Assembly: GCA_002363385.1 (NCBI GenBank)
Contig: DEVL01000004.1
Coordinates: 155,630-219,629 of the forward strand
Direction of reading: 5' to 3'
DNA length: 64,000 bases
From: Stenotrophomonas maltophilia
GTDB taxonomy: Bacteria; Pseudomonadota; Gammaproteobacteria; Xanthomonadales; Xanthomonadaceae
The position numbers and the translations under genes are program-made. Shown in pieces: positions 14,684 to 62,600 of this stretch (its first letter is position 1; each line of letters opens with the position of its first letter). Below the pieces are notes generated by a model, which did no database searches, was not told where the DNA came from, and saw only the letters and a program-made list of their open reading frames with translations.

Positions 14684-14695
14684 CGGAAGAGAACG

Positions 14696-44550: not shown

Positions 44551-44676
44551 CTAACTGGTTGTTCACCCCGCTTCCGCGATAAGCAGCGAAGCGACCAACG
44601 GTCCCCGCCACGCACGGCGCGCGCGGGCCTGTCCGGTGCCGGTCGGCACCGGATTTCCTGTAGAGGTTCATGCAAC

Positions 44677-47145
44677 GTGGACAAGAACACGAAACCGTCG
44701 GCCCTGGGCCGCACTCTGCTGGTCCTGCTTGGCATCGTGGTGATGCTGTTCGGGCTGGCGTTGCTGGTAGGCGGCGTCCGCCTGGTCCAGCTCGGCGGCA
44801 GCTGGTATTTCCTGCTGATGGGCGGCGCATCGCTGCTGGCCGGTCTGCTGCTGGTCCTGCGGCGGCCGATGGGCGCGGCACTGTACGCGGCGGCCTTCAT
44901 CGCCACCGTGGTGTGGGCGCTGGCCGATGCCGGGCTGGAATTCTGGCCCCTGGTCTCGCGACTGGTCATGCCGGCGGTGCTGGCGATGCTGGTGGCACTG
45001 GCCTGGCCGGCACTCAAGCGCGGCCGTGGGCGGCCCGCCGGGCGCTCGGCGTATGCCGTCGCGGCGCTGCTGCTGGTCGGTCTGCTGGGCACGGCGGTCT
45101 CCGCCTTCCAGCCGCGCCCGGTCGTCACCGCCCAGGGCGCACGCCCGGCCGTGGTGCCGGTGGCCAAGGGCAGCGAACAGCGCGACTGGATGCATTGGGG
45201 CAACACCACCGCCGGCACCCGCTTCGCCGCGCTGGACCAGATCACGCCCGCCAATGTGGCGCAGCTGCAGGTGGCATGGACCGCGCACACCGGCGATGTG
45301 CCCCAGAGCGATGGCTTCGGTGCCGAAGACCAGCTCACGCCGCTGCAGATCGGTCAGACCCTGTATCTGTGCACGCCCCACAACCGGGTGATCGCGATGG
45401 ATGTGGACAGCGGCCAGCAGCGCTGGGCGTTCGACCCCAAGGCCACTGCACCGAACTGGCAGCGTTGCCGGGGGCTGGGCTACTTCGATGCCGCGCTGCC
45501 GTTGAACGGCGTGCCCACTGTGGCGGCGGCCGCATCGTCCGGAACGGCTTCGCCCGCAGCACCGCCAGCACCTGCAGCACCACAGGCACCCGCCGCTGCC
45601 GTGACCGGCACACCCCCGGCGATCTGCGAAAAGCGGATCCTGATGACCTCGATCGACGCCCGCCTGTTCGCGCTGGATGCCGCCACCGGCGCACCGTGCA
45701 CCGATTTCGGCGACAACGGCGTGGTCGACCTCAAGCGCGGCATGGGCGAGATCAAGCCCGGCTTCTACACCCTCACTGCCGCGCCGCTGGTGGCCGGTGA
45801 GCTGGTGATCGTGGGCGGCCGCGTGGCCGACAACATCGAGGTCGGTGAACCGTCCGGTGTGGTGCGCGCCTACAACGTGCGGACCGGTGCACTGGCATGG
45901 GTCTGGGACCTGTCCAAGGAAACCCCGGACGTGCCGCTGGATCCCTCGATCCATTACACCCGGGCCACGCCCAATGTATGGACCTCGATGGCCTATGACC
46001 CGCAGCTGGGCCTGGTCTATCTGCCCACCGGCAATACCACGCCTGACCAGTGGGCCGGCGAGCGCACCCCGCAGGATGACAAGTACAGCTCGGCGGTGGT
46101 GGCGCTGGATGTGGCCACCGGCAAAGAGCGCTGGGTGTACCAGACCGTGCATCACGATCTGTGGGATTACGACCTGCCCGCGCAGCCGACCTTGACCGAC
46201 GTACCCGATGGCAAGGGCGGCACCCTGCCCGCCCTGCTGCAGATCACCAAGGCCGGGCAGGTGTTCATGCTCAACCGCGCCACCGGCCAGCCGATCACCG
46301 AGGTGCGCGACATCAAGGCGCCGCAGGGCAAGGCTGATGGTGAGCGCTACTCGCCGACGCAGCGCCTGTCGGTCGGCCTGCCGCAGATCGGTGCGCAGAC
46401 CCTGACCGAATCGGACATGTGGGGCGCCACGCCGATCGATCAGATGCTGTGCCGCATCCAGTTCAAGGGCTTCCGTTACGAGGGCATGTTCACCCCGCCG
46501 GGCGAAGACCTCGCGCTGCAGTGGCCCGGTTCGCTGGGCGGCATGAACTGGGGCAGCGCATCGGTGGATCCGACCACCGGCTACCTGTTCGTCAACGACA
46601 TGCGCCTGGGCCTGTGGACCAAGCTCATTCCGCGCGCGCAGATGACCGAAGGCGCAGGCGGTGTGGAGATGGGCGCGGCCTCGCAGACCGGCACACCGTA
46701 TGGCTCGCTGCGGGATCGCTTCCTGTCCAAGCTGGGCATCCCGTGCCAGAAGCCGCCGTTCGGCACGATGTCGGCGATCAACCTGGCCACCCACGAACTG
46801 GTGTGGCAGGTGCCGGTCGGTACGGTGAAAGACACCGGACCGATGGGCATCAAAATGCGCCTGCCGATTCCGATCGGCATGCCGACGCTTGGCGGTTCGC
46901 TGGCCACGCAATCGGGATTGCTGTTCTTCGCCGGTACCCAGGATTACTACCTGCGCGCCTATGACAGCCGCACCGGCGAAGAGGTATGGAAGGCCCGCAT
47001 GCCGGTGGGCAGCCAGGGCACGCCGATCACCTATGTGTCGCCGAAAACCGGTCGCCAATACGTGGTGATTTCGGCTGGCGGTGCACGTCAGTCGCCGGAT
47101 CGCGGTGACTACGTGATCGCCTACGCGCTGCCGGCGACGCGCTGA
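44677..47145 (+). CDS. quiA: Membrane-bound PQQ-dependent dehydrogenase of the glucose/quinate/shikimate family. Context suggests quinate/shikimate dehydrogenase (quinone) (822 aa).
   Basis: Five N-terminal TM helices are followed by a PQQ beta-propeller (W-containing repeats, DLWDYD). It neighbours pcaR and the qui/pca array. Sequence alone cannot exclude glucose dehydrogenase (Gcd). The start is GTG. Confidence 0.65.
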   Translation: MDKNTKPSALGRTLLVLLGIVVMLFGLALLVGGVRLVQLGGSWYFLLMGGASLLAGLLLVLRRPMGAALYAAAFIATVVWALADAGLEFWPLVSRLVMPAVLAMLVALAWPALKRGRGRPAGRSAYAVAALLLVGLLGTAVSAFQPRPVVTAQGARPAVVPVAKGSEQRDWMHWGNTTAGTRFAALDQITPANVAQLQVAWTAHTGDVPQSDGFGAEDQLTPLQIGQTLYLCTPHNRVIAMDVDSGQQRWAFDPKATAPNWQRCRGLGYFDAALPLNGVPTVAAAASSGTASPAAPPAPAAPQAPAAAVTGTPPAICEKRILMTSIDARLFALDAATGAPCTDFGDNGVVDLKRGMGEIKPGFYTLTAAPLVAGELVIVGGRVADNIEVGEPSGVVRAYNVRTGALAWVWDLSKETPDVPLDPSIHYTRATPNVWTSMAYDPQLGLVYLPTGNTTPDQWAGERTPQDDKYSSAVVALDVATGKERWVYQTVHHDLWDYDLPAQPTLTDVPDGKGGTLPALLQITKAGQVFMLNRATGQPITEVRDIKAPQGKADGERYSPTQRLSVGLPQIGAQTLTESDMWGATPIDQMLCRIQFKGFRYEGMFTPPGEDLALQWPGSLGGMNWGSASVDPTTGYLFVNDMRLGLWTKLIPRAQMTEGAGGVEMGAASQTGTPYGSLRDRFLSKLGIPCQKPPFGTMSAINLATHELVWQVPVGTVKDTGPMGIKMRLPIPIGMPTLGGSLATQSGLLFFAGTQDYYLRAYDSRTGEEVWKARMPVGSQGTPITYVSPKTGRQYVVISAGGARQSPDRGDYVIAYALPATR

Positions 47146-47210: not shown

Positions 47211-48095
47211 ATGCACGATCACCGAGTACGAAGCACCGCCATGTCTGCCGCACCTCCCAGCCGTCGTCCCCAGCGCGCCCCTGCCCCACCGCAGGATCGC
47301 GGGCTCAGCCACGAGCTGATGCAGCAGATCCAGGACAATCAGGGCGATCCGGATTTCATGACCTCCCTTGGCCGTGGCCTGGTGGTGCTGAGTGTGTTTT
47401 CGCAGCACCCGCGCGAAGTGACGATGTCGCAGATCAGCACCGAGACCGGCATCTCGCGGGCGGCGGTGCGTCGCGTGCTGTATACGCTGGAGAAGCTGGG
47501 CTACGTGGGCGAACAGGGCCGTGGCTTCGTGCTGCTGCCGCGCGTACTCGGCATCGGTGGCGCTTATGTCGCCTCCTCGTCGATGACGGCCGCCGCACAG
47601 CCCGTGCTGGATGCCCTTCGCGACGACGTACATGAGTCCTGCTCGCTGGGCGTGCTCGATGGTGACGACGTGCTGTATGTGGCCCGCGCCGAGACCGTGC
47701 GGATCATGTCGATCGGCCTGCGTGCCGGCAGTCGCCTGCCGGCGTACTGCACCTCGATGGGCCGCGTGCTGCTGGCAGCGTTGCCGCGCGACACGCTGGA
47801 AAGTTATCTGGAACGCAATCCGCTGCGCCCGCGTACCGAGCGTACCGTGACCCGCATGGAGGACTTCCTCGACATGCTGGATCGCGTGCGCCGCGAAGGC
47901 GTTTCACTGGTGGACCAGGAGCTGGAGATCGGGCTGCGCTCGATCGCCGTGCCGGTGCATGCGCGCAATGGCACCGTGGTGGGCGCGCTCAACATCGGCA
48001 CCCAGGCCGGACGGATCAGCCTGGGCGTGATGCAGTCGCAGCTGCTGCCGCGGCTGCGCGAAGCGGCGCAGCGCCTGGGCAACCTGCTGCACTGA
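47211..48095 (+). CDS. pcaR: IclR-family transcriptional regulator PcaR/PcaU-type (294 aa; ATG 47241 is an alternative start)
   Basis: The IclR wHTH is MSQISTETGISRAAVRRVLYTLEKLGYV, followed by the effector domain (LPAYCTSMGRVLLA, ELEIGLRSIAVPV). It lies adjacent to the pca genes. Confidence 0.85.
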   Translation: MHDHRVRSTAMSAAPPSRRPQRAPAPPQDRGLSHELMQQIQDNQGDPDFMTSLGRGLVVLSVFSQHPREVTMSQISTETGISRAAVRRVLYTLEKLGYVGEQGRGFVLLPRVLGIGGAYVASSSMTAAAQPVLDALRDDVHESCSLGVLDGDDVLYVARAETVRIMSIGLRAGSRLPAYCTSMGRVLLAALPRDTLESYLERNPLRPRTERTVTRMEDFLDMLDRVRREGVSLVDQELEIGLRSIAVPVHARNGTVVGALNIGTQAGRISLGVMQSQLLPRLREAAQRLGNLLH

Positions 48096-48101: not shown

Positions 48102-48494
48102 TCAGCCGGCGTGTTCGCCGGCCTGCTCTTCGAGGATCGGCTTGGCCAGCGCGAAGGCGTGGTTGGCGGCGGGCACGCCGCAGTAGATCGCCGCCTGCAG
48201 CAGCGCTTCCTTGATCTGCTCCGGGGTGACGCCGTTGTTGCGGGCGGCGCGGATGTGCAGCTTGAACTCTTCGTCGTGGCCCAGCGCCACCATCATCACG
48301 ATGGTCAGCAGCGAACGCGTGTGCCGCGGCAGGCCATCCCGGGTCCAGACCGTACCCCACGCGGTTCGCGTGATGAACGCCTGGAACTCCTCGGTGAAAT
48401 CAGTGCGTGCCTGCAGCGAGCGCTCCACGTGCGCTTCGCCGAGCACGGCGCGGCGTACCGCCAGGCCAGCTTCGTAACGTTCCTGTTCGTCCAT
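48102..48494 (-). CDS. pcaC: 4-carboxymuconolactone decarboxylase (130 aa)
   Basis: The CMD-family pattern is FTEEFQAFITRTAWGTVWTRDGL..R.RSLLTI..., at the end of the pca array. The start is taken at ATG 48494. Confidence 0.88.
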   Translation of the reverse strand: MDEQERYEAGLAVRRAVLGEAHVERSLQARTDFTEEFQAFITRTAWGTVWTRDGLPRHTRSLLTIVMMVALGHDEEFKLHIRAARNNGVTPEQIKEALLQAAIYCGVPAANHAFALAKPILEEQAGEHAG

Positions 48495-48543
48495 TGTGGG
48501 GTGCTCGTTCTGAGGTGGGGGCGTGCCGACCATCGGTGGCGCG

Positions 48544-49320
48544 CTAGCGAAGGTGGGCGGCGAGCGCTGCGGTGAACGCGTCGGCCGATTCGATGTTGCA
48601 GATGTGGCGCCCGGGCACTGCGATGGAATGGCCATCGGCCACGCCCTGCGCGATCGCATCCAGATCCGCCGGTGGGCACACCGGGTCGTCGTCGCCGGCG
48701 ATCGCCAGGGTCGGCACGGTGATGCGCTCGAGTTGGTCACGGAAATCGGCCGTGGCCACGGCATGGCAGCAGCCGACGTAGCCGTCCACGTCCGTAGCGA
48801 CAAAGCGCTGCAGGACGTCCTCCACCACGGCGGGCTCGGCCTGGGCAAACGCCGGGGTGAACCAGCGCTCGGCCGTTCCCTCGCGCAGCGGCAGCAGGCC
48901 ATCGCGTTGCACCTGGGCAATGCGCGCAGTCCAGCTGTCCAGCGTGCCGATCTTCGCGGCCGTGGCGGCCACCGTCAGCGTGTGCAGGCGCTCACTGACG
49001 TGCACGCCCAGCCACTGGCCGGTCAGGCCGCCGATGGAAAGCCCGCAGAAATGGCTGCGCTGCACGCTCAGGTGATCCCACAGTGCAACGACGTCTGCAC
49101 CCAGCTCCGCCACGCTGTACAGACCGGGCGGTGTGCTGGACTGACCATGCCCGCGGCGGTCGTAGCGCAGGATGCGGAACTGCGTCGACAACGCCTCGAC
49201 CTGCCGGTCCCACATGTGCAGGTCGGTGCCCAGCGAGTTGCAGAACGTCAACCACGGCGCCTGGACCGGTCCATCGATCCGGTAATGCAGACGGTGCGAG
49301 TCCAGCTCAAGAAACGGCAT
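48544..49320 (-). CDS. pcaD: 3-oxoadipate enol-lactonase, alpha/beta hydrolase (258 aa)
   Basis: The nucleophile elbow is FCGLSIGG. The N-terminus is LHYRIDGP and the C-terminus has a catalytic His. It lies between pcaB and pcaC. Confidence 0.88.
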   Translation of the reverse strand: MPFLELDSHRLHYRIDGPVQAPWLTFCNSLGTDLHMWDRQVEALSTQFRILRYDRRGHGQSSTPPGLYSVAELGADVVALWDHLSVQRSHFCGLSIGGLTGQWLGVHVSERLHTLTVAATAAKIGTLDSWTARIAQVQRDGLLPLREGTAERWFTPAFAQAEPAVVEDVLQRFVATDVDGYVGCCHAVATADFRDQLERITVPTLAIAGDDDPVCPPADLDAIAQGVADGHSIAVPGRHICNIESADAFTAALAAHLR

Positions 49321-49344
49321 GCAACACTCCAGGAAAAAGAAGGA

Positions 49345-50688
49345 TCAACGCTGTGCCAGCACGCGGTTGATCCAGGTATCGGCCATGCCGCGCCAGCTGT
49401 CCGGCGCGAACAAGGCATCCAGTTGCGTCGGCGACAGTTGCGCGGTCACCTCGGGCATCTCCGTCAACACCTCGCGCAGGTGACGCGACTGCGCCAGCGC
49501 CTGGCGCGCCGCCTGTTCCACCAGTGCGTGCGCAGCCGATTTGCCCAGCGACTCGGCCAGCGTCACGGCCACCGCCTCGGCGTAGAGAAGGCCGCCGTGG
49601 CTGTCCAGGTGCTCCTGCATGCGGGCGCGGTCCAGCTGCAGCCCCTGCACGACCACCGTGATCTGCGCCAGGCTGCCGGCGCATAGGCGCACGATCTCCG
49701 GCACGGTTTCCCACTCGGCATGCCACTGCCCTGCCGCGCGCTCGTGCGGCTGCGGCATCGCCGCGAACAAGGTGGACACCAAGCCCGGCACCCGGCTGGC
49801 CGCAGCGATCGCCGCGACGCAGCCGACCGGGTTGCGCTTGTGCGGCATGGCGGAGGAGCCGCCCTTGCCCTCAGCGGCCGGCTCGAGCGCTTCGGCCACC
49901 TCGGACTGCATCAGCAGCACGATATCGGTGGCGATCTTGCCCAGCGTGCCGGTCAACAGGGCGAACACGCTGCCGAACTCGGCAACGCGGTCGCGCGCGG
50001 TGTGCCAGGGCAAAGCCGGCACCGGCAACTGAAGTTCCTCGCCCAGCGTCTGCGCCACGTCCAGGCCGCGCGTCTGCAACGACGCCAACGTACCCGCGGC
50101 GCCGCCGAACTGCAGCACCAGCGTATCGGCATGCAATGCCTGCAGGCGACGCTGGCTGCGCTGCAGTGCATCGAGCCAGCCGGCCGCCTTCAAGCCGAAC
50201 GTCACCGGCACCGCCTGCTGCAACAGCGTGCGGCCGGGCAAGCCGGTATCGCGCTCGGCATCGGCCAACGCGGCCAGGGCATCGCACAGCACCTGCAGAC
50301 GATCCTGTACCCACGTCAATGCGGTACGCAGCTGCAGCACCGAACCGGTGTCGATGATGTCCTGGCTGGTCGCGCCCCAATGCACCCAGCGCGCGGCCTC
50401 GGCACTGTTCCGCCCGACCTGCGCGGTCAACGCCTTGACCAGTGGAATGGCCGGATTGCCGGCCAGCGCGGTGGCCCGGCCCAGCGCCGGCACTTCGTAC
50501 CGCTCGGCCCGGCAGGCCGCTTCGATCGGGCCCAGCGCGTTCGCCGGGATCACCCCACAGCGCACCTGCGCCCGCGCAAGCGCGGCCTCAACATCGAGCA
50601 TCGCCTGCAGCCGCGCGGTGTCGGTGAACACCGCATCGACCTCCGGCGCACCGAACAGGCCACCGAGCAGGGAGTAGGAATCGCTCAT
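49345..50688 (-). CDS. pcaB: 3-carboxy-cis,cis-muconate cycloisomerase (447 aa)
   Basis: The fumarate-lyase superfamily signature is GSSAMPHKRNP. It sits in pca context. The start is taken at ATG 50688. Confidence 0.9.
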   Translation of the reverse strand: MSDSYSLLGGLFGAPEVDAVFTDTARLQAMLDVEAALARAQVRCGVIPANALGPIEAACRAERYEVPALGRATALAGNPAIPLVKALTAQVGRNSAEAARWVHWGATSQDIIDTGSVLQLRTALTWVQDRLQVLCDALAALADAERDTGLPGRTLLQQAVPVTFGLKAAGWLDALQRSQRRLQALHADTLVLQFGGAAGTLASLQTRGLDVAQTLGEELQLPVPALPWHTARDRVAEFGSVFALLTGTLGKIATDIVLLMQSEVAEALEPAAEGKGGSSAMPHKRNPVGCVAAIAAASRVPGLVSTLFAAMPQPHERAAGQWHAEWETVPEIVRLCAGSLAQITVVVQGLQLDRARMQEHLDSHGGLLYAEAVAVTLAESLGKSAAHALVEQAARQALAQSRHLREVLTEMPEVTAQLSPTQLDALFAPDSWRGMADTWINRVLAQR

Positions 50689-50756
50689 CACGCGCCATCC
50701 ATTCACAGTAGGAACCAGCTTACCCGCGCCAGGTTGGCGCAACGTGCAGGCCCGGA

Positions 50757-51320
50757 TCAGTAATCGAAGAAGACCGTTTCGTGTTCGCCCTGCATGCGCA
50801 CGTCCCAGTGGTACAGGCCATTGCCCTGCGCCTGTGCGATGAGGGTGGCGCGGCGCTCAGCCGGCACCAGCGCCAGGATCGGATCCTCGGCGTTGCCGGG
50901 CGCGTCGCTGAAATACAGGCGCGCACTGGCCGCCCGCAACAGACCACGCATGAAGACCAGCACCATCAGGTGCGGCGCCTGTGCCTGCCCGCCGGGCCCT
51001 GCCACGCTGCCGGGGCGCACGGTGGTGAAGGCGAAGCGCCCCTGCTCATCGGTCGGCACTCTGCCCCACCCGGCAAACGCCGGATCATGATCGGCATGCC
51101 GCGGGTCCTCCGGGTGCGCATAGATGCCTTGTGCATCGGCCTGCCAGATTTCCAGCACGGCATCGGAGACCGGTACGCCCAGGCCGTCGAACACCTGCCC
51201 CTGCACCTGCACGCGCTCACCCTGCGCCTGGGATGGTGCGATATCGGTGCGATACAGCGGTTCCAGGCCCAGACGGTAGTACGGGCCTACGGTTTGCCAT
51301 GGAGTGGATTGGAAACTCAT
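50757..51320 (-). CDS. pcaG: Protocatechuate 3,4-dioxygenase alpha subunit (187 aa)
   Basis: It is an intradiol dioxygenase small subunit (TPWQTVGPYY) immediately downstream of pcaH. Confidence 0.9.
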   Translation of the reverse strand: MSFQSTPWQTVGPYYRLGLEPLYRTDIAPSQAQGERVQVQGQVFDGLGVPVSDAVLEIWQADAQGIYAHPEDPRHADHDPAFAGWGRVPTDEQGRFAFTTVRPGSVAGPGGQAQAPHLMVLVFMRGLLRAASARLYFSDAPGNAEDPILALVPAERRATLIAQAQGNGLYHWDVRMQGEHETVFFDY

Positions 51321-51324
51321 CTGC

Positions 51325-52035
51325 TTACTCCCACACGGTCATCTTGCGACCACGCAAGACGATGTCGAAACGATAACCCAGCGCGAATTCGTTCTCGGTG
51401 TTTTCCCAATCGAACGAGGACACCATGCGCGCACGCGCCTTGGCATCGTCCACGCAGTTGTAGATCGGATCGAACTCCAGCAGCGGGTCGCCGGGGAAGT
51501 ACATCTGCGTGACCAGACGCTGGCCAATGCCTTCGCCATGCAGCGAGAAATGGATATGCGCCGGCCGCCACGCGTTGAAGTGGTTGCGCCACGGATACGC
51601 GCCCGGCTTGATGGTGGTGAAGCGGTAACGGCCGTGTTCGTCGGTGAGCACCTGGCCGGTGCCGATGAAATTGGGGTCCAGCGGTGCGTCGTGCTGGTCG
51701 CCTTTGTGCAGGTAGCGGCCGGCGGCGTTGCACTGCCACACCTCGACCACGCGGTTGCGGACCGGGCGGCCGTTCTCATCCAGCACACGGCCACTGACCA
51801 CGATGCGCTCGCCCAGCGGCTGGCCCTTGAAACCGGCGGTCAGATCGGCCGCATGCTTGCCCAGAGTGATGCGGTCCAGGGTGGGGCCGGTCACTTCGGA
51901 CAAGGTGGCCGGGATCCGGATCGGATCGCGACCGGGGCCGCGCAGGCGCGTGGACGCATACGGCAGATGGATGCGGTCCGGCTGGGAGCCGGGATACGGC
52001 CTGCGGTAACCGCGCAGGTCAGTGGGATCGCTCAT
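51325..52035 (-). CDS. pcaH: Protocatechuate 3,4-dioxygenase beta subunit (236 aa)
   Basis: An intradiol dioxygenase motif with Fe ligands is present (GRYRFTTIKPGAYPW...RPAHIHF). Confidence 0.92.
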   Translation of the reverse strand: MSDPTDLRGYRRPYPGSQPDRIHLPYASTRLRGPGRDPIRIPATLSEVTGPTLDRITLGKHAADLTAGFKGQPLGERIVVSGRVLDENGRPVRNRVVEVWQCNAAGRYLHKGDQHDAPLDPNFIGTGQVLTDEHGRYRFTTIKPGAYPWRNHFNAWRPAHIHFSLHGEGIGQRLVTQMYFPGDPLLEFDPIYNCVDDAKARARMVSSFDWENTENEFALGYRFDIVLRGRKMTVWE

Positions 52036-52141
52036 GGCGTACTCCGATTGGCGGGCGGCCGGACGACCGCGGCTGTGGTGCTACGGCACGCTGCCACGCG
52101 GGGGCGACAGCGGCCGTGAAGCGGAAAAAAGGAAAACGGAT

Positions 52142-53356
52142 TCAGACGCGCTCGATCGCCAGCGCCACGCCCTGGCCGACACCGATGCACATGGTGGCCA
52201 GGCCACGTCGGCCACCGCTGGCCTCCAGCTGACGCATCAGGGTGAGCGCGAGCCGCGCCCCGCTCATCCCGAGCGGATGACCGAGCGCGATGGCGCCGCC
52301 GTTGGCGTTGACGTGCGCGGCATCGTCGGGGAGCCCGAACTCGCGCAGGCAGGCCAGCCCCTGCGAGGCGAACGCCTCGTTGAGTTCGATCGCGTCGAAA
52401 TCGGCGATGTCCAGCCCGAGCCTAGCCAGCAGGCGCCGCGTGGCCGGCACCGGGCCCATGCCCATGATCGCCGGCTCCACGCCCGCGCTGGCAAACCCGA
52501 GGATGCGCGCACGCGGGGTCAGACCCAGCGCCTGCACCTGCGCACCGGAGGCCAGCAGCAGCGCAGCGGCCCCATCGTTGATACCCGAGGCATTGCCGGC
52601 GGTGACGGTACCGGGCTGACGGAACAGCGGCTTGAGCTTGCCCAGCGCCTCGATCGTGGTATCGGCACGCGGGTGTTCGTCGTGCTCCACGCGCACGCTC
52701 TCGCCGCGCTTGCGGCCCGGCGCATCCACCGCGACGATCTCGCCCTCGAAGAAACCGCGCTGCTGGGCCGCGGCGGTGCGCTGCTGGCTGCGCAGCGCGA
52801 ATGCATCCTGGTCCTCGCGCGAAATCGCGTAGCGCTCGGCGACGTTCTCCGCGGTCTGGCCCATGGTGTCCACGCCGTGCAGCTCGCGCAGCCTGGGGTT
52901 GATGAAGCGCCAGCCCATGGTCGTGTCCTCCAGGGTCTGGTCGCGTGCGAACGCGACACCGGGTTTGCCCATCACCAGCGGCGCGCGCGACATCGATTCG
53001 ACCCCGCCGGCGATGGCCAGCCCGAGTTCGCCGGCGGCAATGCCGCGGGCCACCGTGCCGATCGCATCCAGGCCCGACCCACACAACCGGTTGACGGTGC
53101 TGCCCGGCACGTTGACCGGCAAGCCGGCCAACAGCAGGCTCATCCGCGCCACGTTGCGGTTGTCTTCGCCGGCCTGATTGGCACAGCCCAGGTAGACCTC
53201 CTCGATCAACGATGGGTCCAGCTGCGGGTTGCGTGCCAGCAGCGCTTTGATCGGGAGCGCGCCCAGGTCGTCGGCCCGGATGCCGGACAGGGCGCCGGCG
53301 TAGCGGCCGATCGGGGTGCGGATACCATCGACGATATAGATGTCCTGCAAGGTCAT
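52142..53356 (-). CDS. pcaF: 3-oxoadipyl-CoA thiolase (404 aa)
   Basis: Thiolase motifs are present: [18 protein letters not shown] and CIGVGQG. An AAGGAG RBS is followed by ATG 53356, directly after the pcaJ stop. Confidence 0.9.
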
Positions 53357-53357
53357 G

Positions 53358-54005
53358 TCAGGCTCCTTCACTCATCTGCAGCGGCAGGCCGGTCAGCTCG
53401 CGCAGCTGCGCCAGCGTCACCCCGTCGACCATCTCCAGCACGGTCGCGCCGTCCTTGCCCAGGTCGAACACGGCGACATCGGTATAGACCCGCGAGACGC
53501 AGCGCAGGCCGGTCAGCGGATAGCTGCACGCGGCCACCAGCTTGCTCTGCCCCTGCTTGGTCAGCAGGTCCATCATCACGAACACCTGCTTGGCACCGAT
53601 GGCCAGATCCATCGCGCCGCCCACCGCCGGAATCGCATCGGCCGCACCGGTGCTCCAGTTGGCCAGGTCGCCCTGCGCCGATACTTGGAACGCACCGAGC
53701 ACGCAGATGTCCAGGTGGCCGCCACGCATCATCGCGAACGAATCGGCATGGTGGAAATAGCAGCCGCCGGTCAGCAGCGTCACCGGCTGTTTGCCGGCGT
53801 TGATCAGGTCCGGATCCTCCTCACCGGGTGAAGGTGCCGGGCCCATGCCCAGCAGCCCGTTCTCCGACTGCAGGAAGATCTCCTTGTCGGCCGGCAGGAA
53901 GTTGGCCACCGTGGTCGGCAGCCCGATGCCCAGATTGACGTAGGCACCTTCCGGGATGTCACGCGCAACGCGCGCGGCCATCTGGTCGCGGCTGAGGCGG
54001 TTCAT
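53358..54005 (-). CDS. pcaJ: 3-oxoadipate CoA-transferase subunit B (215 aa)
   Basis: The CoA-transferase family I beta subunit is recognisable (catalytic Glu in the SENG motif: LQSENGLLG). It overlaps the pcaI stop by 4 nt. Confidence 0.9.
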
Positions 54006-54691
54006 GCGCGGTCTCCTGCAGTGGTCGACGCGGGCAGTTCGACCACCCGCTGGACGAAGATGCCCGGGGTCACCACGGCCTCGGGATCGAGTTCACCCAA
54101 GGGCACGACCGATTCCACCTGCACGATCGCACAGCGCGCGGCCATCGCCATCAGCGGGCCGAAATTGCGCGCGGTCTTGCGGTAGACCAGGTTGCCCCAG
54201 CGATCGCCGTGATGCGCCTTGATCAGCGCGAAGTCGGCATGCAGCGGGTACTCAAGCACGTAATGGCGACCGTCGATCTCGCGGGTTTCCTTGCCCTGCG
54301 CAAGCTCGGTGCCGTAGCCGGTGGGGGTGAAGATCGCCCCCAGTCCCGAGCCGGCCGCATGGATGCGCGCAGCCAGATTGCCCTGTGGCACCAGTTCCAG
54401 TTCGATCTCGCCGGCGCGGTACGCCGCATCGAAATGCTGCGAATCGGACTGACGCGGGAACGAACAGATGATGCGGCGCACGCGCTTGTGCTGGATCAGC
54501 GCGGCCAGCCCGCTGTCACCGTTGCCGGCGTTGTTGTTGATGATGGTCAGCCCGCGCGCGCCCTGCGCGATCAAGGCATCGATCAGCGCGTCAGGCATGC
54601 CGGCGGTACCGAACCCGCCGATCATCACCGTTGCGCCGTCGTGGATATCGGCCACCGCTGCGTCAGCGCTGGCCACGGTCTTGTCGATCAC
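54002..54691 (-). CDS. pcaI: 3-oxoadipate CoA-transferase subunit A (229 aa)
   Basis: The CoA-transferase alpha subunit is recognisable (IHDGATVMIGGFGTAGMP). The start is placed at GTG 54691, preceded by AAGGAG with a 7-nt spacer. The longer track ORF has no homologous N-terminus. Confidence 0.88.
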   Translation of the reverse strand: MIDKTVASADAAVADIHDGATVMIGGFGTAGMPDALIDALIAQGARGLTIINNNAGNGDSGLAALIQHKRVRRIICSFPRQSDSQHFDAAYRAGEIELELVPQGNLAARIHAAGSGLGAIFTPTGYGTELAQGKETREIDGRHYVLEYPLHADFALIKAHHGDRWGNLVYRKTARNFGPLMAMAARCAIVQVESVVPLGELDPEAVVTPGIFVQRVVELPASTTAGDRA

Positions 54692-54782: not shown

Positions 54783-54817
54783 ATCCGATATTCGGCCACT
54801 TGATTCGATAATCGCAC
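54783..54817. promoter_or_regulatory. Candidate PcaR operator between pcaK and pcaI: two direct boxes, ATCCGATATTCGGCC and ATTCGATAATCGCAC, with a 20-nt period
   Basis: The box at 54803-54817 matches GTTCGATAATCGCAC at 14 of 15 positions. The second box is weaker and lies 20 nt upstream. Both sit in the 150-nt gap before the pcaI start. Confidence 0.6.
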
Positions 54818-54841: not shown

Positions 54842-56161
54842 TCAGGTACGCGTCTGGCCAACGCCCACGCGCAGCCCCAGGCAGGCCCATGCGGCGAGGG
54901 CCAGCGGCAGCGCGCACAGCACGTACAGTGCGGCCGGCGACCAGCCCGCATCGACCAGCAGGCCCACGCTCAACGGCGAAAGAATCGCGCCGACGCGCCC
55001 GATGCCGATCGCCCAGCCGAGCCCCGTGGTGCGCACGTCCGCCGCGAATACCACTGGCGCGGCGGCATACAGGCCGGCCATCGCGCCGAACAACGCTGCG
55101 CCGATCACGAAGGCGATCGGGAACGCGATCTCCAGGCGGGTGTTGAAGCCGGCGAACAGCAGCATCGCCAGCATGGCCAGCACCAGGCTGGCGGCCGTCA
55201 GCCGCGACAGTGCCCAGCGCGAGGCAAGCCAGCCGAACAGACTGCCGCCGACAATGCCTCCGAGGTTGAGCAGCACGCCACCGGTGATGCCCTGCTGCGC
55301 CGAGACGCCGGCGGAGACCAGCAGCTTCGGCGTCCAGCTCAGCACGAAGTAGAACGCGAACATGTGCAGGAAGAAGGCCATGGCGATCAGTACCGCCACC
55401 CGGCGCAGGTCGCCCACGAACAGCGCCGCGTAGCCTTTGCGCCCATCGGCGCGCACGGGTACCGGTGGCAGTGCCTGCAAGGCCGGCATGCGCATGCGCG
55501 CCAGCAGCGCATTGAGCCGCGGCAACGCATCTTTCGGCCGTCGCGCCACCAGGAAATCCAGGGATTCGGGCAGGCAGGCGAGCACCAGCGGAATACACAG
55601 CAGCGAGGCACCGGCACCGATCAGGAACACGCTATGCCAGCTGAAGTGTTCCAGCATCCACGCGGCCAGCAGGCCGCCGAGGGTGGCCCCGATGGGATAC
55701 CCGGTCGCCTGCATCGCCACCGCCGTGCTGCGCCATTTCGCATTGGCATACTCGGCCGTGATCACCCCTACCCCGGCCAGCATGCCGCCGATGCCGATAC
55801 CGGTGAACACACGCAGTGCGGCGAGCTGCCAAGCGTTGGCGGCCAGCGCGGATGCGGCCATGCCCACGGTCAGGATCACAAGGCAGAGCATGATCATCGG
55901 CCGGCGACCCCAGCGGTCGGCCAGCGGTGCGAGCAGGAACGAGCCCAACGCCATCCCGACCAGACCGGCACTGAGCATGATGCCCAACACCCCGCCCGAC
56001 AGCCCCCAGTCGGCCGATACGTGCGGCGCCGTGAACGCCATCACCATCACATCGAAGCCATCGAGCATGTTCAACAGCACGCAGATCGCGATGGCGGTCC
56101 ACTGGAAGGGACTCATCCGCTCGAGCACGAGCGGGGAAGCGGCGGCGGTGGCATGGCTCAT
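54842..56161 (-). CDS. pcaK: MFS aromatic acid:H+ symporter (AAHS family), PcaK-like protocatechuate/4-hydroxybenzoate transporter (439 aa)
   Basis: It has 12 TM segments. The motifs LDGFDVMVMAFTAP and PLADRWGRRP are typical of PcaK/BenK-type transporters. The start is taken at ATG 56161. Confidence 0.78.
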   Translation of the reverse strand: MSHATAAASPLVLERMSPFQWTAIAICVLLNMLDGFDVMVMAFTAPHVSADWGLSGGVLGIMLSAGLVGMALGSFLLAPLADRWGRRPMIMLCLVILTVGMAASALAANAWQLAALRVFTGIGIGGMLAGVGVITAEYANAKWRSTAVAMQATGYPIGATLGGLLAAWMLEHFSWHSVFLIGAGASLLCIPLVLACLPESLDFLVARRPKDALPRLNALLARMRMPALQALPPVPVRADGRKGYAALFVGDLRRVAVLIAMAFFLHMFAFYFVLSWTPKLLVSAGVSAQQGITGGVLLNLGGIVGGSLFGWLASRWALSRLTAASLVLAMLAMLLFAGFNTRLEIAFPIAFVIGAALFGAMAGLYAAAPVVFAADVRTTGLGWAIGIGRVGAILSPLSVGLLVDAGWSPAALYVLCALPLALAAWACLGLRVGVGQTRT

Positions 56162-56210
56162 ACAAGGTTCCTGCGACAACGTGATGCGAAAGGTGTCCGG
56201 CGGGGAGGTC

Positions 56211-57062
56211 TCAGCGACCGGCCTGGCTGGAGGCATGGATGACCTGGAGCACCGACTGCAGCTGCTCGACCTCGACCTGGCCCGGCGCCGACGGCGTGCC
56301 GATCATGCCGAAGGTCAGCGCCTGGCCGAAGGTTTCACCGGCCAGCCGCGAGACCACGCCGGTGCCGCCCATGGACATCGTCAGCAGGGGCTTGCTGGTG
56401 CGCTGGCGCACCTGCCAGGTGGCATCCAGGAGGGTAAGTACGTCGCCGGCGTCCTGCGGCATCACCGCGATCTTCAACACATCCGCGCCCATCGCGTCCT
56501 GCCGCAGCAGCCGCGCGATGATCTCCTCGCGCGCCGGCGTGGCGTGGAAGTCGTGGCTGGACATCACCACCTTCACACCGGCTTTGTGCGCCTGCGCGAC
56601 CAGCGCCGCGACCCGAGCCGGATCACGGAACATTTCCACGTCGATCAACTGGGCGAAGTCACCGTGCAGCAGCGTGCTGTACAGCGCCGCGTAGTCCGCA
56701 TCGCTGATCGGCTTGCTGCCGCCTTCGGCCTGGGTACGGAAGGTGACGATCATCGGCTTGCCGTCCAGCGCGCGCGCGATGCGCTTGCCGAGCGCGACCA
56801 GCGCCGTGCCATCGGTGGCGATGTCCAGGTAATCGATGCGCCATTCGGCCAGGTCGGTGGAGGGGCTGGCGGCGATCGCGGCGGCCTGCTGCAGCGCCCG
56901 TTCGGCGGTGGCGCCGGTGATCGGCACGATGGTGCGCGGCGCGCCTTCGCCGATGCGCAGTGCACCGACCTGCAACGGCGTCACCGCCGGCGGAGCGGCC
57001 TGCGCCACGGATGCCACGCCGCCCAGCACGGCAGCCAACAGATAGGGAGTAAACGCGCGCAT
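56211..57062 (-). CDS. quiB: Type I 3-dehydroquinate dehydratase carrying an N-terminal signal peptide, a catabolic QuiB-type enzyme (283 aa)
   Basis: The signal peptide is MRAFTPYLLAAVLGGVASVAQA|A. The AroD fold is shown by IGEGAPRTIVPITG, SSHDFHATP (catalytic His) and the Schiff-base Lys in LKIAVM. The start ATG overlaps the porin stop (TGATG). Confidence 0.85.
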   Translation of the reverse strand: MRAFTPYLLAAVLGGVASVAQAAPPAVTPLQVGALRIGEGAPRTIVPITGATAERALQQAAAIAASPSTDLAEWRIDYLDIATDGTALVALGKRIARALDGKPMIVTFRTQAEGGSKPISDADYAALYSTLLHGDFAQLIDVEMFRDPARVAALVAQAHKAGVKVVMSSHDFHATPAREEIIARLLRQDAMGADVLKIAVMPQDAGDVLTLLDATWQVRQRTSKPLLTMSMGGTGVVSRLAGETFGQALTFGMIGTPSAPGQVEVEQLQSVLQVIHASSQAGR

Positions 57063-58357
57063 CAGAAAGTGACCTTGGTCTGTACACCCAACGCCCAGGC
57101 GTTGTCGGTGCGGGTATAGGCGAACGTGCCGGGATTGACGATGTACTGCACGTCCGGGCGGATCATCAGCCAAGGCGTGACCTGGATGCTGTAGGACAGT
57201 TCGAACAGTTCTTCGGCCTGGCTGAGCTGGTACAGCGGCGAATCGCCCGGTACGCCCATGCCGACGAGATCGGCGCGGCGCGCATCGACCAGGCGGCGGT
57301 TGATGTCCGCACCGACGTAACCGAGCGCGATGCTGTCCTGCGCCCGTGAGCCGATGCCCTGGTAGACGCCACCCAGCGCGTACCACCGTCGGATCTGCGC
57401 GGTATCGGTATCGGACACCATGTACTGCGCGAACGCGGTCAGTCCGCGCTGCGGATCACCGGCTTCGCGGGTCAGGCGCTGCTCGGCCAGCACGTAGGCG
57501 CCATGGCGTCCCGTGGTCGGCGAGGTATCCAGGCCACGCTGATTGACCCGCGAGGTGTCGTAGTAGCCGCCGAACTTGTACACGCCCGGATGAGTGCCGC
57601 CCTTGTCCGGCGTCCAGGTCACTTCCAGCGGGAACAGCGAGCCGGTGGTGCCCGACACGAACGGGCGGAACGCGTTGCGTTCGATGTTGCCGCCGAGGTT
57701 CGGGTTGACCTGGAACCACCCGGTGCGCACGTTCAACGCCGGGCTGACCTGCTGGGCCACTTCACCGCCCCAGCGTGCCGTGGGGTAGTTGTACCAGCCG
57801 CTGTTGCCGGACATCGCCAGCGGATGCGCGCAGAAGGCCGCGTTGACGAAGTGGGTCAGCAGGCTGTGCAGGCCGAACTGGTTGCCCATTGCGTAATAGC
57901 CCAGCTTGAAATACGACTGGCCGGCGTTGAAGGTCTGGTCGTAGCTGGCTTCGGTGAGGCGGGTGTACTGGCCACCGTAGGCTTCCTGGATCGGAAAGCG
58001 GTTGCCGACCAGATCGGCCGAGGTGCTGTTGCCGCGGCGGTCATTGAGCGTGACGTGGAATGCACCGCCGCTCCAACCGGCCAGCGTGCCCATGTCCAGG
58101 TCCACGCCCACGCGCACCTGTTGGGCATAGCGCGCGCCGGTGCGGCCGTAACCGCCGTCGACCACCCCCATCGCTTCGCCGACATAGTCACCGCGGAACC
58201 GGATGCCGCGTTCATCCAGCGAGGTGCGGGTGCCGCCCCAATCGCCGGTCAGAGTGGTGCCGTCGTAGCGGTTGGCGGACTGCGCGGCGGCCAGCGCCGG
58301 GCACAGCAGCGCCGTGGCGACCAGCGTGGACAGGGAGGTTCGGATCAGGACGGCCAT
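57062..58357 (-). CDS. OprB-family carbohydrate-selective porin, QuiX-like (431 aa)
   Basis: It has a signal peptide (..LCPALAAAQS), the OprB pattern LTGDWGGTRTSLDERGI, and a C-terminal aromatic residue (F). It occupies a position equivalent to quiX of the Acinetobacter qui cluster. Confidence 0.8.
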   Translation of the reverse strand: MAVLIRTSLSTLVATALLCPALAAAQSANRYDGTTLTGDWGGTRTSLDERGIRFRGDYVGEAMGVVDGGYGRTGARYAQQVRVGVDLDMGTLAGWSGGAFHVTLNDRRGNSTSADLVGNRFPIQEAYGGQYTRLTEASYDQTFNAGQSYFKLGYYAMGNQFGLHSLLTHFVNAAFCAHPLAMSGNSGWYNYPTARWGGEVAQQVSPALNVRTGWFQVNPNLGGNIERNAFRPFVSGTTGSLFPLEVTWTPDKGGTHPGVYKFGGYYDTSRVNQRGLDTSPTTGRHGAYVLAEQRLTREAGDPQRGLTAFAQYMVSDTDTAQIRRWYALGGVYQGIGSRAQDSIALGYVGADINRRLVDARRADLVGMGVPGDSPLYQLSQAEELFELSYSIQVTPWLMIRPDVQYIVNPGTFAYTRTDNAWALGVQTKVTF

Positions 58358-58377
58358 GGGTATCTCTCGAAAGGGGA

Positions 58378-59889
58378 TCAGCGCAGCGACAGCGGTGCGC
58401 TGAGAGGCGACGTCGCGCCCAGCGCGGAGGTCGCGGTAGCGGTCACGGTGGCGATGTCAGCCGCTTCGCCAGTGGTCGGCAACGCCAGCGTGAAGCGGCC
58501 TTGCCCCTGTGCATCGGTGATCGCCTCGACCGTGCCGAGCAGGCGCTCGGCTTCGCGACCCTGCGCGGCGCGGTTGCCGAAGAGTTCCAGCTGATAGCGC
58601 TGTGCTGGCATGCCCTGGAAGACACCCTGCACCGTGCGCGCTGCCCCCTTGCCCTGCACGGCCTGCAGCGTCGGCGCGGCCTGGCCGAGATTGGGGGCCG
58701 GTTGACACTCGGCCTGCCCCGGCGCGGTGCAGATACGCGCACGCTTGGCCGGATCGTTGTCCACCCCGCGCCCGCGCGAACCGATGAAGCTGGCGTGCTC
58801 CAGCCCTGGCACCCCGAACACGATCGCGCCGCGCGGCTGGTCCTTGACGCACGCACCACCGGCTTCACAACGCTCGATCTTCAGCCCGTTGTCGAAGATA
58901 CGGTTGGCGCTGAAACGATTCGGTGCGCTGACCGGTTGCGGTCGCACTGCGATGCCGATGCCGTTGCCGGTGATGGTGTTGCCGTCCACCACGTTCCCGC
59001 TGCCGGTGATGCTCAGCCCGATCGAATTGCCCGTGAACGTGTTGGCCGCGATGTAGTTGCGGTTGCCCCAGTTGATCTGCAGGCCATCGGAGTAATCGAC
59101 GAAGCGGTTGCGAACCACGGTGTTGTCGTTGCCCCACAGGATCTCGATGCCCTGCGACGGTTCGGGATTGGCGGCGGTGGACTGGAACAGGTTGTCGGCC
59201 ACCAGGTTCCAGGCAGCGCCGCGGGTCAGCTCCAGCCCATCGCCGTTGTCCACGAACTGGTTGCGCACGATCCGGTTGTGCACCGTGGTGGTGGCGGTGG
59301 ACTGGCCCTTGCCGTCGTCACCGGTGAGCATGATGCCGGCACCGCCTTTGTTGGCGACGATGCGGTTGTCGTGGATCTCGCTGTGGCTGCTGCGGTTGAT
59401 CAGCACGCCGATGCAGAAATTGCGGATCTCCAGCCCCGTCAGTTCCACACCGCGGGTATCACGCAGCACCAGCCCCGGCAGCGTGGTGGTACGCACGTTG
59501 GTACCGGACTGGCCCGGTTCGGCCCCCGGGCAGGCATCAGTGCCGGTGCCGGTGACATAGGCCGAGCCGTCGATGGCCACGTACTGGCCATCGCGCGCCC
59601 ACGGCGTGCCGACGATCTGCACCGGCCCGACGATCTCCGGCAGCGGCGTGGCCGGACGGATCACGTACGGCGCATTGCCCACCGCGGCAATCTCGATCCG
59701 ATAGCGCCCGGGCGCCTGGTTGGCGGTGCTGATCGCCCAGCGCAACGAGCCTGGGTTGGCATCATCGGCATAGCGCTCCACCTTCAGCACCTCCAATGGC
59801 GTGAGCGCAGGCTCGGCCTGGAAGGCCTGTGCCAGCGACGGCAGCATGGCAAGCAGGGACAGGGAAACAGCAGACAGACGGCAACGCAT
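58378..59889 (-). CDS. Secreted right-handed parallel beta-helix repeat protein of unknown function, NosD/pectin-lyase-fold-like with a CSLREA-like N-terminal motif (503 aa)
   Basis: The signal peptide is MRCRLSAVSLSLLAMLPSLAQA|F. GSLRWAISTAN is present. About 22-residue repeats of the type N.I..N...GI recur (IHDNRIVANKGGAGI, VRNQFVDNGDGL, VDGNTITGNGIGI). The C-terminal domain is Cys-containing. The start at ATG 59889 has GGAG 7 nt upstream. ATG 59895 and GTG 59937 are alternatives. Confidence 0.7.
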   Translation of the reverse strand: MRCRLSAVSLSLLAMLPSLAQAFQAEPALTPLEVLKVERYADDANPGSLRWAISTANQAPGRYRIEIAAVGNAPYVIRPATPLPEIVGPVQIVGTPWARDGQYVAIDGSAYVTGTGTDACPGAEPGQSGTNVRTTTLPGLVLRDTRGVELTGLEIRNFCIGVLINRSSHSEIHDNRIVANKGGAGIMLTGDDGKGQSTATTTVHNRIVRNQFVDNGDGLELTRGAAWNLVADNLFQSTAANPEPSQGIEILWGNDNTVVRNRFVDYSDGLQINWGNRNYIAANTFTGNSIGLSITGSGNVVDGNTITGNGIGIAVRPQPVSAPNRFSANRIFDNGLKIERCEAGGACVKDQPRGAIVFGVPGLEHASFIGSRGRGVDNDPAKRARICTAPGQAECQPAPNLGQAAPTLQAVQGKGAARTVQGVFQGMPAQRYQLELFGNRAAQGREAERLLGTVEAITDAQGQGRFTLALPTTGEAADIATVTATATSALGATSPLSAPLSLR

Positions 59890-60005: not shown

Positions 60006-60066
60006 GTAGGTTTATCGCACTGCACCATTCAAGTGCGTTTATCGACTATGCGTGCGATTATCGAAC
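60006..60066 (-). promoter_or_regulatory. Triple PcaR-type operator and candidate promoter of the beta-helix/quiX/quiB... array
   Basis: On the minus strand the sequence reads GTTCGATAATCGCAC (60066-60052), gcat, AGTCGATAAACGCAC (60047-60033), and then an inverted copy GTGCGATAAACCTAC (60020-60006). Embedded hexamers TTCGAT-16 nt-GATAAA could serve as -35/-10 elements. Confidence 0.65.
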
Positions 60067-60206
60067 AACAGCCCTACGACCATTGTCGTAGGCGCGCACG
60101 CGACGCCGCGCACGGCTCTGCCGCAGCGAGACTGCAACAGCGCATTCATCGATGGGAACGTCTGCGGCGGGCAGCATCCGGAACCGCGCCCGCAGTGACT
60201 TACGAC

Positions 60207-62502: not shown

Positions 62503-62600
62503 CGAGGGTTCCGCAGGGTCAAAGCGGCATCGTAACCGGGCGGCCGGCACGATGACGTCTTCAACGTGTTCCGCAGTGGCGATGGCCGGATCCCGCCCAA

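Follow-up and report, generated by a model that had tools for sequence, protein, structure and literature searches.

Genes and putative operators in the qui/pca cluster

The window, the whole stretch of 64,000 nucleotides (64 kb) of Stenotrophomonas maltophilia DNA analysed here, includes a cluster of qui and pca genes. On the minus strand the order is quiC-quiX-quiB, a pcaK-like MFS gene, pcaIJF-pcaHG-pcaB-pcaD-pcaC, and pcaR and quiA follow on the plus strand. The first gene, here called quiC (58378..59889), encodes a protein of 503 aa which, from homology, fold and synteny, appears to be the precursor of a beta-helix 3-dehydroshikimate dehydratase of the Acinetobacter type. Its stop codon is separated by 20 nt (58358-58377), the gap given in a preliminary description of this DNA, from the start of a gene for a QuiX-like porin of the OprB family (431 aa, 57062..58357; Pfam OprB, E=1.8e-84). 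The stop codon of the porin gene overlaps the ATG of quiB (TGATG; 56211..57062), which encodes a type I 3-dehydroquinate dehydratase of 283 aa (Pfam DHquinase_I, E=1e-63, and TIGR01093) that has an N-terminal signal-like leader and shares 51 % identity with Acinetobacter QuiB. The MFS gene (54842..56236, start codon uncertain) encodes a transporter of the aromatic acid/H+ symporter family (TIGR00895, E=3.6e-106) that is PcaK-like, its match to the PcaK model (E=8e-57) being under the cut-off of that model.

The pca block from pcaI to pcaC, also on the minus strand, spans 48102..54691. Pfam domains identified pcaI (54002-54691; CoA_trans), pcaH (51325-52035) and pcaG (50757-51320; both Dioxygenase_C), pcaB (49345-50742; Lyase_1), pcaD (48544-49320; Abhydrolase) and pcaC (about 48102-48500; CMD), and pcaJ (53358-54005) and pcaF (52142-53371) were recognized by tblastn, in which they matched the CoA-transferase and thiolase genes of Acinetobacter. 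On the plus strand, a PcaR-like regulator of the IclR family is encoded at 47211..48095 (pcaR; Pfam HTH_IclR and IclR_C) and quiA at 44677..47145 encodes a protein of 822 aa resembling PQQ-dependent quinate/shikimate dehydrogenases (Pfam PQQ, E=9e-221), which is 49 % identical to the protein in the quiA slot of Acinetobacter.

A motif search for PcaR-type operator boxes returned eight matches in the window, with 1.39 expected. The gene had been described as lying directly behind a triple PcaR operator, and three boxes are indeed found upstream of quiC, though only one of them is perfect. This one, GTTCGATAATCGCAC (60052..60066, minus strand), is 163 nt upstream of the quiC start and is the operator sequence reported for PcaR of P. 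putida (PMC12455658). The other two are degenerate, namely AGTCGATAAACGCAC with three mismatches (60033..60047, minus strand) and the weak GTGCGATAAACCTAC with four mismatches (about 60006..60020, minus strand), the last read by eye as it was under the threshold of the motif search. Further boxes lie in the 150 nt that separate pcaI from the MFS gene (one mismatch; 54803..54817, minus strand) and upstream of quiA (two mismatches; 44537-44551). Hence, the features of a PcaR regulon, putative operators of the GTTCGATAATCGCAC type before quiC, pcaI and quiA and a linked IclR gene, are present, and the neighbouring IclR-type PcaR probably controls expression through these boxes. Co-transcription of the genes and PcaR control are predicted for the source organism. 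A hairpin resembling a terminator (60073..60092, minus strand), situated between selO and the promoter region of quiC, is suggestive only, as hairpins of this kind are no more numerous in the region than expected by chance.

Features of the quiC product

The quiC ORF has a longer version, starting with GTG, that extends to 59937. The ATG at 59889 is preceded by GGAG ending 7 nt before it, and the alignments of homologs begin at the same residue. The 503 aa ORF on the minus strand in the preliminary description (58378-59889) was, thus, retained. A Sec signal peptide, also proposed there, is predicted from sequence features and hydropathy at residues 1-22 (MRCRLSAVSLSLLAMLPSLAQA; 59824..59889, minus strand). 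The N-terminus, MRCRLSAVSLSLLAMLPSLAQA followed by FQ, shows the n/h/c layout: it contains Arg residues, residues 5-16 form a hydrophobic core, and AQA stands at residues 20-22. In the AF2 model pLDDT is <50 across residues 1-26. Six Cys (C120, C159, C341, C347, C387 and C395) are invariant in an alignment of 14 family members, which fits an exported, disulfide-bonded protein, and the mature protein is likely to be periplasmic.

Pfam found only beta-helix families in QuiC, Beta_helix (PF13229, E=7e-17) and NosD (PF05048, E=7e-16). In the AF2 model (pLDDT 85.4), eight regular three-strand coils are formed by residues 138-332 and are preceded by N-terminal partial coils; approximately ten beta-helix turns had been counted earlier. 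The Cys-containing C-terminal domain noted at that time corresponds to the part that carries C341, C347, C387 and C395, and beyond it, at about residues 405-500, is a beta-sandwich. The GSLRWAISTAN motif, which had also been singled out, makes up residues 47-57, and five of its positions (L49, R50, W51, A52 and N57) are invariant. The 14 aligned sequences, from Acinetobacter, Psychrobacter, Advenella, Pseudomonas, Solimonas, Pseudoxanthomonas and the window, share approximately 150 invariant columns, and in addition to the six Cys the window QuiC keeps the family invariants DNGDGLELTRGAA, NPEPSQGIEIL and YSDGLQINWG. Charged residues are strongly conserved along one face of the helix. Plausibly, the mechanism in the groove of the beta-helix is an elimination of the E1cB type that employs acidic and basic residues which are invariant and lie on successive coils (DNGDGLELTRG, NPEPSQGIEIL and YSDGLQINWG).

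Relationship to QuiC of Acinetobacter

When QuiC was compared to the PDB using phmmer, the best match was 8wm1_A (E=1.4e-164, residues 31-501), a structure released in 2024 with the deposited title '3-dehydroshikimate dehydratase (DHS dehydratase)'. It was also the best PDB match of the AF2 model in Foldseek (TM 0.89/0.96, rmsd 1.7 A over 473 columns), and the matches after it were approximately 43 orders of magnitude weaker. Structure prediction, which had been suggested as a check, places the window protein on a known structure. An A. baumannii cluster with 2061 members shows 95 % identity to the sequence of 8wm1; some of these members carry the name '3-dehydroshikimate dehydratase (DHS dehydratase) [Acinetobacter baumannii]', and 8wm1 is an Acinetobacter protein.

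An Acinetobacter protein, P0127, is 54 % identical to the window QuiC (E 4e-180, residues 4-503). Its gene lies between quiB and the quiX porin gene in the arrangement pcaIJFBDKCHG - DHquinase_I - [beta-helix] - OprB - PQQ, and from this position P0127 is QuiC itself. A natural QuiC-QuiB fusion protein (P0066) also exists. In the JGI and NCBI/UniRef records many family members are already named '3-dehydroshikimate dehydratase', including one from Stenotrophomonas chelatiphaga.

The function assigned to the family rests on the PDB title, the database names, the secondary literature and what Elsemore and Ornston reportedly described for Acinetobacter QuiC in their primary paper of 1995. In A. 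baylyi ADP1, QuiA, QuiB and QuiC take quinate to protocatechuate in the periplasm (PMC4213383), and quiC of A. baumannii is the gene for turning 3-dehydroshikimate into protocatechuate (PMC9649394), the reaction of 3-dehydroshikimate dehydratase (EC 4.2.1.118; PMC9324987). Literature searches returned no paper on structure 8wm1, no enzyme assay for the window QuiC or for any Stenotrophomonas ortholog, and nothing specific on quinate in Stenotrophomonas or Xanthomonas.

The proteins from the two genera are homologous over their full length (54-57 % identity, E 1e-164 to 4e-180) and share the beta-helix, Cys-rich linker and C-terminal beta-sandwich (in the window protein, as seen in the AF2 model) and the six conserved Cys; a corresponding N-terminal export signal is predicted in the window protein. 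The genes share their surroundings, as in both cases quiC adjoins pca genes and the genes of an OprB porin and of a type I dehydroquinase that is exported, and quiA is nearby. The order differs. In Acinetobacter the qui genes come after the pca genes, as quiB-quiC-quiX-quiA, with quiC directly behind quiB, whereas in the window quiC is first (quiC-quiX-quiB-MFS-pcaIJFHGBDC) and quiA is on the other strand past pcaR. The boxes also differ, as those in the window match the P. putida PcaR site and none was found within 400 nt upstream of the Acinetobacter quiC. The cluster in the window is a rearranged version of the Acinetobacter pcaIJFBDKCHG-quiB-quiC-quiX-quiA cluster.

Taken with the operator-like sequences, the homology, fold and synteny leave little doubt that the window gene is quiC, encoding a probably secreted right-handed beta-helix protein whose predicted activity is that of the 3-dehydroshikimate dehydratase of the Acinetobacter type. 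The gene had been said to occupy the slot that quiC fills in Acinetobacter, and it does so because it is quiC. Though a non-homologous periplasmic 3-dehydroshikimate dehydratase was among the functions first proposed, only the function, still putative, survives, as the window protein is 54 % identical to P0127 and matches 8wm1 over its full length. It was also claimed that the protein is a candidate for a new periplasmic pathway component and that no beta-helix protein was known to have an assigned role in hydroaromatic catabolism, but Acinetobacter QuiC is such a protein. Hence, the beta-helix protein represents a step of the pathway that was already known and adds no new component to it.

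Based on orthology and the Acinetobacter literature, quinate and shikimate would cross the outer membrane, probably via the OprB-type porin QuiX, and be oxidized at the periplasmic face by QuiA, a PQQ dehydrogenase bound to the membrane. QuiB, a type I dehydroquinase that is exported, would then convert 3-dehydroquinate to 3-dehydroshikimate, which QuiC would dehydrate and aromatise to protocatechuate. Protocatechuate would be imported by the PcaK-like MFS symporter and broken down through beta-ketoadipate by PcaHG, PcaB, PcaC, PcaD, PcaIJ and PcaF.

Distribution of the family

Neighbouring genes were compared for Acinetobacter and for 26 Lysobacteraceae-type loci of sufficient length. The order quiC-porin-quiB-MFS is kept in 19 of the 20 Stenotrophomonas loci, the sole exception being a 6-kb contig that ends just past quiC, and is also found in Pseudoxanthomonas, Xanthomonas and other Lysobacteraceae. 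A loss of synteny with the qui genes in related genomes had been named as evidence that would count against a role in the pathway; synteny is conserved. Loci of Stenotrophomonas, Xanthomonas and Lysobacteraceae likewise keep the first PcaR-type box upstream of quiC, and in related loci it is again followed, 19 nt downstream, by a matching second box. In Solimonas and Azotobacter, quiC adjoins quiB.

Approximately 50 homologs from the P. putida group, sharing approximately 63 % identity, are stand-alone genes with unrelated neighbours and without qui or pca genes. Upstream of these orphans, only weak PcaR boxes with two to three mismatches were found, at approximately 10 of the approximately 50 loci. 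Membership of the family is, therefore, by itself no proof of a role in quinate catabolism, and the orphans could act on a different periplasmic substrate. It is conceivable, if rather unlikely, that the beta-helix QuiC family holds more than one function. Separately, no published account was found that explains how a small molecule is dehydrated by this polysaccharide-lyase-like fold, so that the chemistry may, with the same reservation, put the fold to a new use. The Stenotrophomonas gene itself would not become new through either possibility.

Alternative functions

The right-handed beta-helix is the fold of polysaccharide lyases, and a lyase or esterase acting on polysaccharide or pectin and freeing quinate or phenolic acids from plant conjugates was the second function proposed in the preliminary description. 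QuiC shares with NosD and the polysaccharide lyases (PL6, PL9 and phage tailspikes) the general fold and the repeat signature PF13229/PF05048. Weak sequence matches to PL6 alginate lyases were found (7dmk, E=0.005; 6qps, E=0.58), as were structural matches to lyases and tailspikes (E about 1e-5 to 1e-6). However, these fall short of the match to 8wm1 by approximately 160 (sequence) and 43 (structure) orders of magnitude, their TM values are 0.25-0.44 compared to 0.89, and the full-length homology is to the protein in the quiC slot of Acinetobacter. In addition, no carbohydrate-active or esterase genes were detected alongside quiC when the window ORFs were searched with Pfam, and the predicted substrate of QuiC is a small molecule and not a polymer. 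As nothing beyond the general resemblance in fold speaks for a lyase or esterase, we regard this function as very improbable.

That QuiC acts on some other periplasmic substrate, and that dehydroshikimate is converted by another enzyme encoded in the genome, such as one of the TIM-barrel QuiC1/QsuB type, is hardly credible. The orphan genes of the P. putida group suggest that the link of the family to quinate catabolism may not be a strict one, and the view of the genome is limited to 64 kb. Against this, quiC is tightly packed with the quiX porin gene and exported quiB behind a perfect PcaR box in an arrangement that is conserved across the Lysobacteraceae, QuiC shares the approximately 150 invariant columns with the Acinetobacter proteins, and Pfam detected no TIM-barrel-type dehydratase among 40 of the 42 likely window genes (called by third-position GC content).

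The third proposal, a binding or scaffold protein, here taken as one without catalytic activity, and a reading as a NosD-like maturation protein or an ABC accessory, which some database names suggest, draw on the Pfam NosD match and on some NCBI homolog records named 'nitrous oxide reductase family maturation protein NosD', but are scarcely tenable given the score with the NosD subfamily model TIGR04247 (47.1 bits compared to a cut-off of 300), a match to the NosD structure 7o0y of only E=0.065, marginal sequence similarity to NosD and the lyases overall (E 0.005-0.6), a different genomic context with no nos genes among the window ORFs scanned, and the conserved charged face of the helix, which together with the enzyme assignment in the PDB and the literature argues for catalysis. 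Identity as NosD was rejected on the TIGR04247 score and the lack of nos genes among these ORFs.

Annotation of quiC

The known TIM-barrel 3-dehydroshikimate dehydratases, P. putida QuiC1 (PDB 5HMQ), C. glutamicum QsuB, Bacillus AsbF and fungal Qa-4, are cytoplasmic and sugar-phosphate-isomerase-like, with a barrel domain that we take to be Pfam AP_endonuc_2, and their fold is unrelated to that of the window QuiC. They catalyse the same reaction and likewise serve to channel quinate and shikimate to the protocatechuate branch (PMC7442255, PMC9324987 and PMC8264583). Identity of the window protein as a TIM-barrel dehydratase was rejected, as Pfam gives only Beta_helix and NosD.

Identification of quiC completes an ordinary periplasmic module for conversion of quinate and shikimate to protocatechuate in a Stenotrophomonas-like genome. 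This is of little scientific news, and its practical value lies in annotation. Family members are variously named '3-dehydroshikimate dehydratase', 'right-handed parallel beta-helix repeat-containing protein', 'NosD domain-containing protein', 'nitrous oxide reductase family maturation protein NosD' and 'mannuronan 5-epimerase' in public records, and searches of Pfam and NCBIfam gave no model specific to the beta-helix QuiC family. Consequently, as happened in the preliminary description, readers or pipelines familiar with TIM-barrel dehydratases alone will wrongly score quiC as missing.

Identity of the beta-helix protein

As proposed in the preliminary description, the ORF at 58378–59889 (− strand, 503 aa) is real, and its third-position GC content of 0.84 is typical of genes in this 66–70 % GC window. 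A longer version that starts with GTG extends to 59937; a GGAG lies 7 nt ahead of the ATG at 59889, and alignments with homologues begin at the residue encoded by this ATG. The other features described previously were also found. The N-terminus, MRCRLSAVSLSLLAMLPSLAQA followed by FQ, has the layout of a predicted Sec signal peptide, GSLRWAISTAN occupies residues 47–57, Pfam returned Beta_helix (E=7e-17) and NosD (E=7e-16), and a gap of 20 nt separates the stop codon from the OprB-family porin gene that follows.

Though it was initially suggested that the protein might be a new, non-homologous periplasmic 3-dehydroshikimate dehydratase, on sequence grounds the gene is the orthologue of Acinetobacter quiC and is, thus, an already known component. 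The guess at the function appears to be right and the premise of novelty is wrong, as the protein is 54 % identical over its whole length (E 4e-180) to an Acinetobacter homologue of 486 aa, P0127, and matches the dehydratase structure 8wm1. The contig that encodes P0127 carries, in order, genes for an IclR regulator, two CoA-transferases, a thiolase, Lyase_1, a hydrolase, MFS, CMD, two dioxygenases, DHquinase_I, the beta-helix protein, an OprB porin and a PQQ dehydrogenase. This is the classical pcaIJFBDKCHG-quiB-quiC-quiX-quiA order, with the beta-helix protein at the quiC position. The QuiB proteins of the window and of Acinetobacter share 51 % identity. In A. baylyi ADP1, quinate is converted to protocatechuate by QuiA, QuiB and QuiC, located in the periplasm (PMC4213383), and quiC is the gene used in turning 3-dehydroshikimate into protocatechuate in A. 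baumannii (PMC9649394).

The best PDB match by sequence is 8wm1_A (E=1.4e-164, aligned residues 31–501), deposited under the title '3-dehydroshikimate dehydratase (DHS dehydratase)', and the runners-up, PL6 alginate lyase and NosD, have E values of 0.005 and worse. When the 8wm1 sequence, as read from the PDB alignment, was used to query a large protein collection, it proved to be an Acinetobacter protein sharing 95 % identity with a 2061-member cluster from A. baumannii, in which some of the members carry the same name. In the AlphaFold2 model built for the window protein (mean pLDDT 85.4), eight regular coils of beta-helix are followed by a Cys-rich linker and, at the C-terminus, a beta-sandwich. 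The model superimposes on 8wm1_A with TM 0.89/0.96 and an rmsd of 1.7 Å; the structural runners-up are phage tailspikes and polysaccharide lyases (E about 1e-6).

Many family members, including a Stenotrophomonas chelatiphaga protein, are already called 3-dehydroshikimate dehydratase in JGI, NCBI and UniRef. Public naming is nevertheless inconsistent, rival names being 'NosD domain-containing protein', 'nitrous oxide reductase family maturation protein NosD', 'mannuronan 5-epimerase' and 'right-handed parallel beta-helix repeat-containing protein', and searches of Pfam and NCBIfam gave generic beta-helix and NosD models and no dedicated QuiC family model. The primary description of QuiC, that of Elsemore and Ornston in 1995 (J Bacteriol 177:5971), reportedly gave quiBCXA as the gene order and found the sequence of QuiC to be unlike anything then known, from which it would follow that the beta-helix nature of QuiC has been little appreciated.

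Organization of the qui/pca cluster

In Acinetobacter, the pca genes are followed by quiB-quiC-quiX-quiA, whereas in the window quiC-quiX-quiB-MFS-pca lie on one strand and quiA on the other. Downstream of quiC (59889–58378) on the − strand are the quiX porin gene (58357–57062), quiB (57062–56211), which includes a signal-like leader, and the gene for a PcaK-like aromatic acid/H+ symporter of the MFS (56236–54842). The quiB ATG overlaps the porin stop codon (TGATG, 57060–57064), suggesting translational coupling; quiB hence starts at 57062, and the 391 aa version given by the ORF finder is over-extended. Next come pcaI, pcaJ, pcaF, pcaH, pcaG, pcaB, pcaD and pcaC, in that order (54691–48102, − strand), pcaJ and pcaF being assigned from tblastn matches to the Acinetobacter genes. 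An IclR-type regulator gene (47211–48095) and quiA, a PQQ quinate/shikimate dehydrogenase-like gene (44677–47145), are on the + strand. No TIM-barrel-type dehydroshikimate dehydratase was detected among the window ORFs scanned with Pfam.

The 15-mer GTTCGATAATCGCAC is the Pseudomonas putida PcaR operator (PMC12455658), and eight boxes of this type were found in the window versus 1.39 expected. The triple operator claimed upstream of quiC comprises one perfect copy (60052–60066), with the others being weaker, namely a copy with three mismatches (60033–60047) and a third spotted by eye. Further boxes lie in the 150 nt gap between the MFS gene and pcaI (54803–54817, one mismatch) and about 125 nt upstream of quiA (44537–44551, two mismatches). 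The boxes ahead of quiC, pcaI and quiA suggest three PcaR-controlled promoters rather than one long operon, and PcaR probably coordinates the three; for this organism, both the regulation and the co-transcription are inferred.

The window most likely encodes a module that operates in the periplasm, like the one known from Acinetobacter, in which quinate and shikimate would enter through the porin and be oxidized by QuiA, exported QuiB would dehydrate 3-dehydroquinate, and exported QuiC, whose activity and location we infer for this organism, would dehydrate and aromatize 3-dehydroshikimate to protocatechuate, which the MFS symporter would import into the beta-ketoadipate pathway.

A terminator-like hairpin (60092–60073) separates the quiC promoter region from the gene directly upstream, which encodes a SelO-family protein adenylyltransferase (60207–61778, − strand) and is preceded by a GST gene (61810–62550). 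The SelO-family gene is at the same position in 16 of 20 Stenotrophomonas loci; in three of the remaining loci, the upstream flank is shorter than 500 nt.

Conservation and alternative functions

When one genome was scanned for each species, 227 relatives emerged, the best 80 of which were fetched; the closest, from Stenotrophomonas rhizophila, is 97 % identical, which assigns the window to this species or a near relative. Synteny with qui genes, whose absence had been listed as a possible objection, is conserved in Stenotrophomonas and other Lysobacteraceae. The order quiC-porin-quiB-MFS-pcaIJFHGBD is kept in 19/20 Stenotrophomonas loci, the exception being a 6 kb contig that ends just after quiC. 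Pseudoxanthomonas and Xanthomonas loci retain quiC-porin-quiB, usually with the MFS gene (a 5.5 kb Xanthomonas contig has quiC-porin only), as do an unclassified Lysobacteraceae locus and a metagenome bin that carries the label Pseudomonas. Solimonas has quiC-quiB-porin-quiA adjoining pca genes, and Azotobacter and Azorhizophilus have quiC-quiB. All 20 Stenotrophomonas loci have a PcaR box ahead of quiC, as do six of the nine other Lysobacteraceae-type loci. In one metagenome-assembled genome, a 3.4 kb contig encodes a putative QuiC-QuiB fusion, P0066 (778 aa, L084 197–2533; a cluster of 11 member sequences), which combines an N-terminal beta-helix with a C-terminal type I dehydroquinase.

When 14 diverse family members are aligned, about 150 columns show no variation, among them those of DNGDGLELTRGAA, NPEPSQGIEIL and YSDGLQINWG in successive coils and of six Cys of the mature protein. 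Given the conserved context and these residues, it is unlikely that the window protein has diverged in substrate specificity. All that supports the earlier proposal of a plant-conjugate lyase or esterase is the general fold. The protein scores 47 bits with the NosD model, for which the cut-off is 300, and no nos genes were found among the window ORFs scanned, both of which contradict a role as a scaffold or NosD-like protein. For the QuiC dehydratase, a search of the literature found no published mechanism for beta-helix enzymes of this activity; we speculate that invariant acidic and basic residues in the groove could perform an E1cB-type elimination, by analogy with the beta-elimination of beta-helix lyases.

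About 50 homologues from the P. putida group (L029–L080, e.g. L051 10001–11386, and L082/L083 10001–11473) are about 63 % identical and have a signal peptide. They are stand-alone genes among unrelated ones (BrkB-like, peptide deformylase, CvfB, AceK), with no qui/pca neighbours within 10 kb, and PcaR-like matches are at best weak (2–3 mismatches, ~90–117 nt upstream, about 10 loci).

Other loci in the window

Unrelated to quiC, an MdtABC-like arrangement at 29502–37245 (− strand) consists of an HlyD-type membrane-fusion gene and, after it, a pair of AcrB/RND transporter genes that encode 1031 and 1169 aa. A FadB-like (3-hydroxyacyl-CoA dehydrogenase/enoyl-CoA hydratase) and thiolase gene pair (12311–15961, + strand) behind a TetR-family regulator gene (11584–12267, + strand) is an ordinary fatty-acid oxidation locus.
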